64,000 nt of DNA, taken from NCBI RefSeq assembly GCF_054482525.1, contig NZ_CM137006.1. One strand, given 5' to 3'. Below the pieces are notes generated by a model. It searched no databases. It saw only the letters and a list, made by a program, of their open reading frames with translations, and had not been told where the DNA came from. This document shows positions 11,768 through 61,078 of this stretch, one piece after another. Made by a program: the position numbers and the translations under genes. The first letter of the stretch is position 1. Every line of letters begins with the position of its first letter.

Positions 11768-12907
11768 CTGGCGTTTCTCGACCGTTCGAATATCGGTTTT
11801 GCCAAACAGACCTACCAGATTGATACCGGGCTGAGTAATGAAGCTTATGCGCTGGGAGCAGGCATTTTCTTTGTGGTATATGCGTTTCTGGGTGTTCCGG
11901 CGAATCTTTTGATGCGCAAACTGGGGGCAAGAACCTGGATTGGTACGACAACACTGCTGTGGGGATTTCTTTCGGCAGCCATGGCATGGGCCGATACTGA
12001 AGCGAAATTTCTGATCGTTCGCACTCTGCTTGGTGCTGCGGAGGCCGGGTTCTTCCCTGGTATGATTTATCTCACCTCGCAATGGTTTCCGCAGCGTAAT
12101 CGCGCCAGCATTATGGGGCTGTTCTATATGGGTGCACCGCTGGCGTTAACACTGGGATCACCGCTTTCCGGCGCGCTGCTGGAGATGCATGGATTTATGG
12201 GGCATCCCGGCTGGTTCTGGATGTTTGTGATTGAAGGATTGCTGGCAGTCGGCGCTGGGGTATTCACATTCTTTTGGCTTGATGACACACCGGAGCAGGC
12301 ACGTTTTCTGAGTAAACAAGAAAAAACGTTGCTTATCAATCAACTGGCAAGTGAAGAACAACAGAAAGTGACTTCTCGATTGAGCGATGCGCTGCGTAAT
12401 GGCCGAGTCTGGCAACTGGCGATTATCTACCTGACCATTCAGGTGGCGGTTTACGGATTAATTTTCTTCCTGCCGACCCAGGTTGCTGCATTGCTGGGGA
12501 CAAAAGTGGGCTTTACGGCGTCGGTGGTCACCGCCATTCCGTGGGTTGCGGTCTTGTTTGGGACCTGGCTTATTCCGCGCTATTCCGATAAAACCGGCGA
12601 ACGGCGTAATGTCGCAGCGCTGTGTGTTGCAGCCATCGGGTTTATTGCCGTGCAGCCGGTGTTCTGGACGATGCCGACACAACTTCTTTCCGGTACGGCG
12701 CTGGCTGCGGGGATTGGTTTTATAAACCTGTTTGGTGCAGTGGGCGGGTTTATTGCCCCGATCCTGCGCGTGAAAGCAGAAACGTTATTTTCCAGCGATG
12801 CGGCGGGATTACTGACGCTGGCAGCGGTGGCGGTCATCGGTTCACTGATTATTTTCACTCTGCGTGTAAATCACACTGTTGCGCAGACCGACGTGGCACA
12901 TCATTAA
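11752..12907 (+). pseudogene. rhmT: 5'-truncated L-rhamnonate MFS transporter rhmT (yfaV), missing about 40 N-terminal codons
   Basis: Translation from ...LALYVLAFLDRSNIGFAKQTYQIDTGL... matches RhmT from about residue 45 onward; sequence upstream is IS. An in-frame GTG inside the IS end (11738) could drive a fusion product. Confidence 0.75.
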
Positions 12908-36732: not shown

Positions 36733-43580
<6,848 letters not shown>

Positions 43581-45234: not shown

Positions 45235-46011
45235 ATGCGAAAGATTTTTCTTCCGTTGTTACTGGTGGCGCTTTCGCCTGTCGCTCACAGTGAAGGTGTG
45301 CAGGAAGTCGAGATTGATGCACCGCTCTCTGGCTGGCATCCGGCAGAGGGCGAAGATGCCAGTTTTTCACAATCGATCAATTACCCGGCGTCGTCCGTCA
45401 ACATGGCAGATGATCAAAATATCTCAGCGCAGATCCGCGGCAAAATAAAGAATTATGCTGCGGCGGGTAAAGTTCAGCAGGGCCGGCTGGTGGTCAACGG
45501 TGCCAGTATGCCGCAGAGAATTGAATCCGATGGTTCATTTGCACGCCCTTATATTTTCACTGAAGGCAGCAACAGCGTGCAGGTCATCAGCCCAGATGGG
45601 CAAAGCCGACAAAAAATGCAGTTTTACTCAACGCCGGGCGCTGGAGTGATCCGCGCGCGTTTACGGCTGGTTCTCTCCTGGGATACGGACAATACCGACC
45701 TCGATCTTCACGTTGTCACACCTGATGGCGAACACGCCTGGTACGTTAACACCGTGCTGAAAAACAGTGGTGCACTGGATATGGATGTCACGACGGGGTA
45801 CGGACCCGAGATTTTCGCCATGCCAGCGCCAGTTCACGGACGCTATCAGGTGTATATCAACTACTATGGCGGACGCAGCGAAACGGAATTGACGACCGCC
45901 CAACTGACGCTGATCACCGATGAAGGATCGGTCAATGAGAAACAGGAAACATTTATTGTACCGATGCGTAATGCTGGCGAGTTGACGCTGGTGAAAAGTT
46001 TTGACTGGTGA
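45235..46011 (+). CDS. yfaP: YfaP (DUF2135-family protein)
   Basis: 258-aa ORF MRKIFLPLLLVALSPVAHSEG... (signal peptide), last gene of the yfaA-T-S-Q-P cluster. Confidence 0.8.
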   Translation: MRKIFLPLLLVALSPVAHSEGVQEVEIDAPLSGWHPAEGEDASFSQSINYPASSVNMADDQNISAQIRGKIKNYAAAGKVQQGRLVVNGASMPQRIESDGSFARPYIFTEGSNSVQVISPDGQSRQKMQFYSTPGAGVIRARLRLVLSWDTDNTDLDLHVVTPDGEHAWYVNTVLKNSGALDMDVTTGYGPEIFAMPAPVHGRYQVYINYYGGRSETELTTAQLTLITDEGSVNEKQETFIVPMRNAGELTLVKSFDW

Positions 46012-46285
46012 TCCATCCTTTCACACAACCTGGCTCTCTCTTTTTTCAGATAAGACTGCTGGGCGATCTGCCGACGCCAGGATATAACCATTAACAAGCG
46101 TCGGCAGATTGGTCATTTCTTGTTGTTCGTACGGAAAACTGTCCATTTACTCCGGCTTTCCTGATTAAGGCAATGGTTTCTAAGCGATACGCATTATTGC
46201 AATGGTGACAGAACATTGCGGTAACACGCTTTTACCGCTACCTTAACCACACTCCATCGGTCACCTGAGGCGGAGCTTCGCCCCT

Positions 46286-49135
46286 TTGAAATACCTTGCT
46301 TCTTTTCGTACAACCCTGAAAGCCTCGCGCTACATGTTCAGAGCATTGGCGTTAGTGCTCTGGCTGTTGATTGCTTTTTCATCCGTTTTTTACATCGTGA
46401 ATGCGTTACATCAGCGAGAATCGGAAATTCGTCAGGAATTTAATCTGAGTTCCGATCAGGCTCAGCGCTTTATTCAACGTACCTCTGATGTGATGAAAGA
46501 GCTGAAGTACATCGCTGAAAATCGCTTATCGGCAGAAAACGGTGTGCTTTCCCCGCGTGGACGAGAAACGCAGGCGGATGTGCCTGCGTTTGAACCGCTG
46601 TTTGCCGACTCCGATTGTTCCGCAATGAGTAACACCTGGCGAGGCTCTCTGGAGTCATTGGCGTGGTTTATGCGCTACTGGCGCGATAATTTCTCTGCGG
46701 CTTACGATCTCAACCGGGTATTTTTAATCGGCAGCGATAACCTTTGCATGGCCAATTTCGGTCTGCGTGATATGCCAGTGGAACGCGATACCGCGTTGAA
46801 AGCTTTGCATGAACGCATCAATAAATATCGAAATGCACCACAAGATGATAGCGGCAGTAACCTCTACTGGATCAGCGAAGGTCCGCGCCCTGGCGTCGGG
46901 TATTTTTACGCGTTGACGCCAGTTTATCTGGCGAACCGGTTGCAGGCGCTTTTGGGTGTCGAGCAGACCATCCGGATGGAGAACTTTTTCTTACCAGGTA
47001 CGTTGCCGATGGGGGTTACCATTCTTGATGAAAATGGTCATACCCTCATTTCGCTTACCGGACCAGAAAGTAAAATTAAGGGCGATCCTCGCTGGATGCA
47101 GGAACGCTCCTGGTTTGGCTATACGGAAGGGTTCCGGGAGCTGGTGCTGAAGAAAAATCTGCCACCCTCATCGCTAAGCATCGTTTATTCGGTGCCGGTT
47201 GATAAGGTGCTGGAACGCATTCGCATGTTGATCCTTAACGCAATTTTGCTGAATGTGCTTACCGGAGCTGCATTGTTTACTCTCGCGCGGATGTACGAGC
47301 GACGTATTTTCATTCCGGCGGAAAGCGACGCCCTGCGACTGGAAGAACATGAGCAGTTTAATCGCAAGATTGTCGCCTCCGCGCCAGTGGGTATCTGCAT
47401 TTTGCGTACCGCTGATGGCGTCAATATTTTAAGTAACGAACTGGCGCATACCTATCTCAATATGCTTACGCATGAGGATCGCCAACGGCTGACACAAATT
47501 ATCTGTGGGCAGCAGGTCAATTTTGTTGATGTCCTGACCAGCAACAATACCAATCTGCAAATCAGCTTCGTCCATTCGCGCTATCGTAATGAAAACGTGG
47601 CCATTTGTGTGCTGGTGGATGTTTCTTCGCGCGTGAAGATGGAAGAGTCGTTGCAGGAGATGGCACAAGCAGCGGAACAGGCGAGCCAGTCAAAATCGAT
47701 GTTCCTTGCCACCGTCAGTCATGAGCTGCGAACGCCGCTGTATGGCATTATCGGTAACCTGGATCTGTTGCAAACCAAAGAGTTACCGAAAGGCGTCGAT
47801 CGTCTGGTGACGGCAATGAACAACTCTTCCAGCCTGTTGTTGAAAATTATCAGCGATATTCTCGATTTCTCGAAAATTGAATCAGAACAGTTGAAGATCG
47901 AACCGCGTGAGTTTTCACCGCGTGAAGTGATGAACCACATCACCGCCAACTATTTACCGCTGGTGGTACGCAAGCAGTTAGGCTTGTACTGCTTTATTGA
48001 ACCGGATGTGCCAGTGGCCTTAAATGGCGACCCGATGCGTTTACAGCAGGTCATCTCCAACCTGTTGAGTAACGCCATAAAATTCACCGATACCGGCTGT
48101 ATAGTTTTGCATGTTCGCGCTGATGGCGATTATCTCTCTATCCGTGTTCGCGATACCGGCGTGGGGATTCCGGCGAAAGAAGTCGTGCGCTTGTTTGATC
48201 CCTTCTTCCAGGTCGGAACGGGCGTACAGCGAAACTTCCAGGGGACCGGTCTGGGTCTGGCGATTTGTGAAAAACTGATCAGCATGATGGACGGCGATAT
48301 CTCGGTAGATTCAGAACCGGGAATGGGCAGCCAGTTTACCGTGCGTATTCCGTTGTACGGCGCTCAGTACCCGCAGAAAAAAGGCGTGGAAGGGTTGAGT
48401 GGTAAACGCTGCTGGCTGGCGGTCCGCAATGCGTCGCTCTGTCAGTTCCTGGAAACCAGTTTGCAGCGCAGCGGCATCGTCGTTACAACATACGAAGGGC
48501 AGGAACCGACTCCCGAAGATGTGTTAATCACTGACGAGGTAGTGAGCAAAAAATGGCAGGGTAGAGCGGTAGTGACCTTCTGTCGTCGCCATATTGGTAT
48601 TCCGCTGGAGAAAGCGCCAGGGGAGTGGGTACACAGTGTGGCTGCCCCGCATGAGCTACCGGCATTGTTGGCGCGTATTTATTTGATCGAGATGGAGAGC
48701 GATGATCCTGCTAACGCTCTGCCGTCGACGGACAAAGCGGTCAGCGATAACGACGATATGATGATTCTGGTTGTGGATGATCATCCGATTAACCGGCGTC
48801 TTCTGGCAGATCAGTTGGGATCGTTGGGCTATCAATGTAAAACCGCGAATGATGGCGTCGATGCGCTTAATGTACTTAGCAAGAATCATATTGATATCGT
48901 GCTTAGCGACGTCAACATGCCAAATATGGATGGTTACCGCTTGACGCAACGCATTCGTCAGTTGGGACTGACGTTGCCGGTAATCGGAGTAACTGCTAAT
49001 GCGTTGGCTGAAGAGAAGCAGCGGTGTCTGGAGTCTGGTATGGACAGCTGCCTGTCGAAGCCGGTAACGCTGGATGTGATAAAACAGACGCTAACGGTAT
49101 ATGCCGAGAGGGTCAGGAAATCGCGGGATTCGTAG
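46286..49135 (+). CDS. rcsC: Hybrid sensor histidine kinase RcsC
   Basis: 949-aa ORF with HisKA (SHELRTPL), HATPase and C-terminal receiver (VVDDHPINRRLLADQL...DVNMPNMDGY). Confidence 0.92.
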   Translation: MKYLASFRTTLKASRYMFRALALVLWLLIAFSSVFYIVNALHQRESEIRQEFNLSSDQAQRFIQRTSDVMKELKYIAENRLSAENGVLSPRGRETQADVPAFEPLFADSDCSAMSNTWRGSLESLAWFMRYWRDNFSAAYDLNRVFLIGSDNLCMANFGLRDMPVERDTALKALHERINKYRNAPQDDSGSNLYWISEGPRPGVGYFYALTPVYLANRLQALLGVEQTIRMENFFLPGTLPMGVTILDENGHTLISLTGPESKIKGDPRWMQERSWFGYTEGFRELVLKKNLPPSSLSIVYSVPVDKVLERIRMLILNAILLNVLTGAALFTLARMYERRIFIPAESDALRLEEHEQFNRKIVASAPVGICILRTADGVNILSNELAHTYLNMLTHEDRQRLTQIICGQQVNFVDVLTSNNTNLQISFVHSRYRNENVAICVLVDVSSRVKMEESLQEMAQAAEQASQSKSMFLATVSHELRTPLYGIIGNLDLLQTKELPKGVDRLVTAMNNSSSLLLKIISDILDFSKIESEQLKIEPREFSPREVMNHITANYLPLVVRKQLGLYCFIEPDVPVALNGDPMRLQQVISNLLSNAIKFTDTGCIVLHVRADGDYLSIRVRDTGVGIPAKEVVRLFDPFFQVGTGVQRNFQGTGLGLAICEKLISMMDGDISVDSEPGMGSQFTVRIPLYGAQYPQKKGVEGLSGKRCWLAVRNASLCQFLETSLQRSGIVVTTYEGQEPTPEDVLITDEVVSKKWQGRAVVTFCRRHIGIPLEKAPGEWVHSVAAPHELPALLARIYLIEMESDDPANALPSTDKAVSDNDDMMILVVDDHPINRRLLADQLGSLGYQCKTANDGVDALNVLSKNHIDIVLSDVNMPNMDGYRLTQRIRQLGLTLPVIGVTANALAEEKQRCLESGMDSCLSKPVTLDVIKQTLTVYAERVRKSRDS

Positions 49136-49137
49136 GA

Positions 49138-49222
49138 CGGATAAGGCGTTTACGCCGCATCTGGCATTCAGTGCAAATGCCAGATGCGACGCTGACGCGT
49201 CTTATCTGGCCTACAGATGATT
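49138..49222. repeat. REP element between convergent rcsC and rcsB
   Basis: ggacggataaggcgtttacgccgcatc ... gatgcgacgctgacgcgtcttatctggcctac palindromic unit. Confidence 0.65.
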
Positions 49223-60934: not shown

Positions 60935-61078
60935 GTGCCACATCCGGCATGGTATGCCGGATGTGGCGTATGCAGATAAGACGCGTCAGCGTCGCATCAG
61001 TCAACCGGCTCGGGCGTTAGATGTCGGATGCGGCGTGACCGCCTAATCCGACCTACGGGGTGCCGCACTTCACAGCAG
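60935..61078. repeat. BIME: cluster of REP palindromes between mqo and eco
   Basis: Repeated gccggatgtggc / gatgcgacgctgacgcgtcttatc / gtcggatgcggcgtga units in alternating orientation. Confidence 0.7.

Follow-up and report, generated by a model that had tools for sequence, protein, structure and literature searches.

The 274 bp that separate yfaP from rcsC in the analyzed window (i.e. the whole 64,000-nt stretch of DNA examined here) are very probably an empty-site haplotype. It would have been produced by an old deletion of about 7.1-7.2 kb that reached from approximately codon 50-70 of atoS to one base past the yfaP stop codon. A 12-bp inverted repeat in this gap lies wholly in what remains of atoS and does not represent a recombination site. 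We lean slightly towards a combined explanation, in which the gap is such a deletion remnant and its repeat additionally serves as a makeshift terminator or 3′-end hairpin.

Gene order and composition of the yfaP-rcsC gap

In K-12, atoS-atoC-atoDAEB sits between rcsC and yfaP. The window runs as the reverse complement of K-12, and here only the gap at 46012-46285 (274 bp) lies between yfaP and rcsC. The initial annotation had reported the missing ato genes, the 274-bp spacing and the K-12 position of ato, and all three were borne out. E. coli PCN033, which is 100% identical to the window in this region, is annotated as yfaQ-yfaP-rcsC-rcsB-rcsD with no ato genes. A tblastn search with the K-12 Ato proteins detected no ato genes in the whole 64-kb window, and the only matches were paralogue-level ones inside rcsC. 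YfaP of the window shares 98% identity with YfaP of E. whittamii, and its RcsC is 99.7% identical to K-12 RcsC over 949 amino acids. As a side observation, yfaS, the alpha-2-macroglobulin-family gene upstream of yfaQ (window ~38000-43580; PPECC33_RS11965), is annotated as frameshifted in PCN033.

The gap and its flanking genes comprise the following parts:

45235-46011, plus strand: yfaP coding sequence, terminal gene of the co-oriented yfa cluster, stop codon at 46009-46011 (ORF list, PCN033 annotation)
46012-46013, no strand: yfaP-side deletion junction, where K-12 homology stops one base past the yfaP stop codon (directly after TGAT)
46013-46036, no strand: junction-adjacent 24 bp, barely alignable, possibly atoS codons ~50-69; the most variable part of the gap
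46037-46116, minus strand: decayed atoS remnant, codons ~23-49, with both repeat arms inside (blastn, BLASTP)
46117-46206, minus strand: strongly diverged atoS start and atoS-proximal part of the atoS-rcsC intergenic region, with an 11-bp gap relative to K-12 (multiple alignment)
46207-46285, plus strand: rcsC-proximal upstream region, common to ato-positive and ato-negative genomes and across species
46286-49135, plus strand: rcsC, TTG start (ORF list, PCN033 annotation)

The rcsC-proximal region (46207-46285) showed 1/79 differences from K-12 and 3/79 from E. whittamii, and presumably contains the rcsC promoter and 5′UTR.

A deletion that left part of atoS behind

Homology with ato-positive genomes stops at 46012 and returns to near-identity at 46207. 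Local alignment showed that K-12 continues past the junction with TAATGGGG and the yfaP/atoB terminator, which is missing in the window. This terminator, a hairpin plus T-tract (aaaacacccgataactttcgctatcgggtgttttt, L001 ~12302-12336), is part of the 73-bp K-12 yfaP-atoB spacer that is deleted here. The deletion would thus have taken the 3′ part of atoS, atoC, atoDAEB and the terminator common to yfaP and atoB. Left behind would be the rcsC upstream region at 46207-46285 and, at 46013-46206, decayed DNA from the atoS promoter and the 5′ part of its coding sequence.

Several comparisons identified the origin of the remaining DNA. In a sensitive search, 46037-46104 matched atoS in 3717 ato-positive genomes with 77.9% identity. 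Using blastn, gap positions 25-94 (about 46037-46106) aligned to K-12 atoS (L001 5188-5120) with 54/70 identical positions (77%, E = 3e-10). This match is on the minus strand and is collinear with a weaker match of 46165-46285 to the atoS-rcsC intergenic region. The conceptual translation, which includes MTNLPTLVNGYILASADRPAVLSEKRE, was identical to AtoS residues 23-49 at 14/27 positions (BLASTP, E = 2e-6). Multiple alignment revealed that the atoS start codon (~46128-46130) is lost and that a 52-bp internal gap removes atoS codons ~4-21; besides the 11-bp gap in the intergenic part, a 29-bp gap occurs near the junction. The remnant is an atoS pseudogene whose coding integrity is lost, as the start codon is gone, an internal deletion has occurred, and other alleles carry stops.

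A 41-codon ORF crosses the remnant on the minus strand (46021-46146; ORF list) and is annotated by PGAP as 'hypothetical protein' in some genomes, but it is not conserved: the majority ato-negative allele carries an in-frame stop, and in E. whittamii a TAG falls inside the left repeat arm. A search of its 41-aa conceptual translation against 5.8 billion proteins, relying on shared 5-mers, returned four copies of the same mini-ORF and no intact divergent atoS allele.

Differences from K-12 were distributed over the gap as follows:

46013-46036, next to the junction: 16/24
46037-46065: 6/29 (21%)
46066-46077, left arm: 6/12 (50%)
46078-46097, loop: 5/20 (25%)
46098-46109, right arm: 4/12 (33%)
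46110-46164: 27/55 (49%)
46165-46206: 17/42 (40%)

Because 46013-46036 is too diverged, the atoS-side breakpoint could only be estimated to lie within codons 50-70. In the same 24 bp, E. coli and E. whittamii differ at 12/24 positions. These include nine consecutive mismatches (AACCTGGCT versus TTTGCCCGG), as if several neighbouring nucleotides had been replaced at once and not by point substitutions. Since part of atoS is kept in the empty site, the haplotype arose by deletion from an occupied state and is not a virgin target.

An inverted repeat within the atoS remnant

The initial annotation had drawn attention to a perfect 12-bp inverted repeat with a 20-nt loop in the gap, and a sequence check confirmed it:

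46066-46077, plus strand: left arm, ATCTGCCGACGC; the minus strand reads GCG TCG GCA GAT, corresponding to AtoS codons ~36-39
46098-46109, plus strand: right arm, GCGTCGGCAGAT; the minus strand corresponds to AtoS codons ~25-29

The arms ATCTGCCGACGC and GCGTCGGCAGAT are complementary at 12/12 positions (eight G-C pairs) and are spaced by 20 nt. The repeat exceeds chance expectation: using dinucleotide-preserving shuffles, 0.2 seed hits were expected per 64 kb, equivalent to ~9e-4 in a gap of 274 bp. Three loci in the 64-kb window carry a perfect 12-bp inverted repeat with a loop of 3-50 nt, and the two other loci, 49156-49188 and 60937-60967, are REP-type elements. The former is a 13-bp perfect inverted repeat held by a REP/BIME-type element at 49138-49215, between the convergent stops of rcsC and rcsB; the latter is a REP-like 14-bp perfect inverted repeat (GCCACATCCGGCAT/ATGCCGGATGTGGC).

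As a G+C-rich inverted repeat following a gene, the yfaP-rcsC repeat resembles REP/BIME elements, which can stabilize upstream mRNA. Unlike these, it is single-copy, lacks the REP consensus and is derived from coding sequence. Its occurrence at one place per genome in 1541 genomes, with no further arm copies in the window, ruled out an assignment to this class.

The repeat was detected only in the ato-negative haplotype. Aligning the gap to ato-positive genomes, as the initial annotation had proposed, did not show a repeat that flanks ato; the homologous bases are atoS codons ~25-39. The K-12 columns homologous to the arms (TCCTTCCGTTTC and GCGTTGGGACAA) are plain atoS coding sequence and are complementary at only 5/12 positions. 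Hence, no such repeat exists in intact atoS, and it therefore arose in the remnant lineage. An excess of change in the arms relative to K-12, as directed remodelling or template switching would have suggested, was not found (10/24 differences in the arms versus 55/146 in the remaining remnant, p = 0.8). With arms no more diverged than their surroundings, there is no sign of arm-specific remodelling.

A putative terminator upstream of rcsC

On the yfaP-sense strand, the repeat is the core of a longer RNA hairpin followed by a T-rich tract:

46060-46115, plus strand (yfaP-sense): extended RNA hairpin with 17 pairs including G-U, a 1×1 internal loop and a 20-nt apical region
46116-46127, plus strand: T-rich tract straight after the extended stem, TTTCTTGTTGTT in the window; the majority allele of ato-negative genomes has TTTCTTATTTTT

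The hairpin has a minimum free energy of -29.5 kcal/mol (z = -3.8 for the window allele and z = -4.7 for the majority allele), and RNA folding gave no stable pairing inside the 20-nt loop. The stem (12 perfect pairs, extendable to 17) is co-oriented with yfaP and begins 49-55 nt past its stop codon. The U-tract starts at the first base after the extended stem (UUUCUUGUUGUU in the window, UUUCUUAUUUUU in the majority allele) and occurs on the yfaP-sense strand only, with none on the opposite strand. According to the multiple alignment, the T-rich tract stems from the atoS start region, and it adjoins the stem because of the 52-bp internal deletion. TransTermHP-style tail scores were -4.6 and -4.8 (window and majority allele, respectively), compared with -5.2 for the native K-12 yfaP/atoB terminator.

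The native terminator and the window hairpin are alike in that both consist of a hairpin and a T-tract shortly past the yfaP stop codon and have comparable tail scores, but they are unrelated in sequence. With A/T tracts on either side of a 9-bp stem that closes an 8-nt loop, the native terminator is bidirectional, whereas the window hairpin has a stem of 12-17 bp, a loop of 20 nt and a T-tract on one strand only. Loops of intrinsic terminators typically comprise 3-10 nt. Judged against the features of intrinsic terminators, the window hairpin has the G+C-rich stem after a stop codon and the adjoining U-tract, but not the short loop. It was not flagged by a terminator consensus scan, since that scan allows loops of 3-8 nt only, and owing to its 20-nt loop we do not class it as a canonical intrinsic terminator.

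Of the functions considered for the repeat, we favor, tentatively and at somewhat less than even confidence, a putative makeshift intrinsic terminator or 3′-end hairpin upstream of rcsC, based on the strong hairpin, the U-tract and the location in the least variable block of the remnant (see below). The hairpin would form on read-through transcripts from the yfa cluster. There, it would stand in for the deleted native terminator and shield the co-oriented rcsC from yfa read-through. The initial suggestion of a terminator may thus hold: the strong stem, the U-tract and the yfa-sense strand agree with it, but the 20-nt loop, the lack of covariation and the tolerance of an IS2 insertion do not. 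Its simplest form, a terminator present unchanged in ato-positive strains, was not found, as the repeat is restricted to ato-negative genomes.

Conservation and natural variants of the hairpin

The 64-bp hairpin stretch was identical in 1449 of 1541 ato-negative genomes. The two main ato-negative alleles of E. coli differ at seven gap positions, none of which is within 46039-46121. Compared with E. whittamii, 4/73 differences were counted in 46037-46109 versus 16/96 in the remaining alignable remnant (Fisher p = 0.03). The segment 46039-46121 is hence the least variable part of the remnant. In the flanking genes, window and E. whittamii diverge at 30-41% of four-fold degenerate sites.

Support from compensatory changes was not obtained. 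In a covariation check of eight alleles and 17 pairs, a set with too little variation to be decisive, there were no double changes, two one-sided G-U changes and four unpaired cells. The two single-arm variants within E. coli are C-to-U changes, for which G-U pairing is retained on the plus-strand RNA. Of the four pair-breaking changes, one is in strain 88COLEC; E. whittamii has the other three, of which two fall in the 12-bp arms and one in the extended stem. The hairpin of E. whittamii is also weaker (-20.4 kcal/mol, z = -1.5). Between E. coli and E. whittamii, the stem has changed more than the loop (0/20 differences) and the 5′ flank. This pattern fits a constraint on primary sequence, or a recent exchange between the species, as well as it fits a hairpin.

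In strain SRY206 (L027 ~1672-2999), an IS2-type element of the IS3 family, the only mobile element seen at this site, is inserted in the hairpin loop at a position equivalent to window 46082-46086. With a 5-bp target duplication (ATAAC), the insertion places the arms ~1.3 kb apart. Altogether, the hairpin stretch was interrupted in at most 4 of 1541 ato-negative genomes. The IS2-type insertion and the interrupted stretches imply that the intact hairpin is dispensable.

Alternative explanations for the repeat

It is quite conceivable, although not what we expect, that the repeat is a neutral by-product, which arose by chance or mutation in a decaying pseudogene fragment and serves no function. 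Intrastrand template switching, for example, may perfect quasi-palindromes, and the uniformity of the stretch would reflect shared ancestry. The absence of covariation, the four pair-breaking changes and the tolerated IS2 insertion agree with a neutral origin, as do the non-canonical loop size and arms no more diverged from K-12 than the neighbouring sequence. The surrounding remnant is also decaying: it has lost its start codon and acquired indels, and stops interrupt the mini-ORF. What counts against neutrality is, first, the low expectation for a perfect 12-bp repeat in a gap of this size (~9e-4). Second, the hairpin block is the least variable part in two independent comparisons, far below the divergence of 30-41% at four-fold degenerate sites. 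Third, the U-rich tract adjoins the stem on the yfaP-sense strand only, exactly where the native terminator was lost.

A different sequence-specific element in the ~85-bp block 46037-46121, such as an sRNA derived from the yfa 3′UTR, a regulatory site of rcsC or a micro-protein, appears very unlikely. Modules at the 3′ end of Hfq-type sRNAs consist of a U-rich stretch, a hairpin and a U tail, and the block resembles them; the loop (0/20) and 5′ flank that are better conserved than the stem would also agree with such an element. Yet, an Rfam scan gave no match above the gathering score (the best was ctRNA_pGA1, with 13.3 bits versus a gathering score of 45 and E = 9.3), and a scan for sigma-70-like promoters found no sites on either strand. 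Against a micro-protein, stops interrupt the minus-strand ORF both in E. whittamii and in the majority allele. A protein-binding site, as suggested in the initial annotation, found no support either: a spacing of 20 bp between 12-bp arms would be unusual in a dimeric operator, and ato-positive strains, which have the same rcsC-proximal 79 bp, lack the site. Papers mentioning yfaP are silent on the intergenic region, and our literature searches found no published work on it.

The initial proposal of a recombination scar or attachment site, at which ato would be integrated or excised, carries next to no probability. It draws on the variable presence of ato among E. coli (PMC9602453), the carriage of ato genes by the mobile LAA island (PMC5539235) and the restriction of the repeat to the empty-site haplotype. 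Several observations contradict it: (i) both arms are inside the atoS remnant, on the rcsC side of the deletion and at least 54 bp from the yfaP-side junction at 46012/46013, and do not lie across it; (ii) at the occupied site of K-12, neither ato boundary has a copy of an arm, and the sole match with up to two mismatches, inside atoS, is at chance level; (iii) the homologous atoS bases are complementary at only 5/12 positions; (iv) the K-12 ato genes (only atoS, atoC and atoDAEB) include no annotated recombinase or transposase; (v) the G+C content of the ato segment, 50.9%, equals that of the window; (vi) part of atoS is retained at the empty site, as expected for a deletion from the occupied state; and (vii) Escherichia sp. 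MOD1-EC7003 lost ato with different breakpoints. As an inverted repeat at a gene-content polymorphism, the window repeat is reminiscent of the terminal inverted repeats or att sites of mobile elements. It differs from these in that it does not flank the variable segment, and there is no recombinase, target-site duplication or second copy.

ato-negative haplotypes in Escherichia

The yfaP-gap-rcsC arrangement was contiguous in 1537 of 5426 complete E. coli genomes (28%), including O157:H7, O121, O111 and PCN033. The remaining 3886 matching genomes had no single match across both flanks, and those sampled matched in two separate places. Presence or absence of ato by phylogroup is already known, with an atoA prevalence of 98% in phylogroup A, 11% in B1, 100% in B2, 100% in C, 67% in D and 0% in E (PMC9602453 Table 2); the share of contiguous genomes found here fits these values. 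A second atoSC-atoDAEB copy can ride on the LAA pathogenicity island of LEE-negative STEC (PMC5539235, PMC9729726). Genomes that are ato-negative at the native site are therefore not necessarily ato-negative overall, and absence refers here to the 64-kb window.

E. whittamii (L007 10778-11050) carries the deletion junction and the atoS remnant exactly as in the window. A different arrangement was detected in Escherichia sp. MOD1-EC7003 (L009 10784-11535), in which K-12-like atoS codons 1 to ~101 run directly into the final ~123 nt of atoB. This deletion corresponds to K-12 L001 5346-12171, with breakpoints unlike those of the window, and two REP-like elements are inserted right after yfaP. Loss of ato occurred at least twice in the genus, by different deletions. 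E. albertii has a yfaP 3′ flank of the K-12 type on a contig that stops 64 bp past yfaP, so that its ato state is inferred from this flank only. In the search for further ato-negative lineages, YfaP clusters at 90% merged all Escherichia. Two divergent YfaP homologues labeled as E. coli (P0007 and P0014) turned out to come from frameshift-ridden ato-positive assemblies and were ruled out as additional lineages.

The remnant diverges from atoS far more than the flanks diverge between haplotypes; for rcsC, window and K-12 differ by 1.3% overall and by 5% at four-fold degenerate sites. Together with the sharing between E. coli and E. whittamii, the high divergence of the remnant indicates that the haplotype is old or was moved between species. 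From the comparison with one E. whittamii genome, the deletion haplotype would be either very old or the result of inter-species transfer.

A more far-reaching scenario can be drawn from these observations. Leftover DNA from the 5′ coding part of atoS would have been turned into a new terminator or 3′UTR RNA element that keeps yfa read-through away from rcsC, with substitutions building the 12-17-bp stem and the 52-bp deletion placing the T-rich tract beside it. Both states of the locus, with and without ato, would moreover have been maintained over a long time as a polymorphism that crosses the boundary between E. coli and E. whittamii. Taken as a whole, we regard this scenario as unlikely.

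Significance for ato-negative E. coli

In the literature searched, we came across no account of how the empty site is built, namely the atoS remnant, the exact junction, the hairpin, the sharing with E. whittamii and the MOD1-EC7003 deletion. The site itself is an ordinary object, composed of a deletion junction, pseudogene debris and possibly a terminator-like hairpin, and belongs to ordinary gene-loss biology. The overall importance of the result is accordingly modest. It removes a tempting reading of ato as a mobile cassette with an inverted-repeat scar, and instead points to an origin of ato-negative E. coli by deletion from an ato-positive ancestor.

For the ato-negative lineages (O157:H7, most B1 STEC and PCN033), the consequence is a changed neighbourhood, as the envelope-stress sensor gene rcsC lies directly downstream of the co-oriented yfa (alpha-2-macroglobulin) cluster. 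With rcsC co-oriented downstream of a yfa cluster that lacks its native terminator, Rcs signalling could differ slightly between ato-negative and ato-positive strains. Should the hairpin prove to terminate transcription, it would illustrate, neatly and on a small scale, how pseudogene debris can supply a regulatory element.
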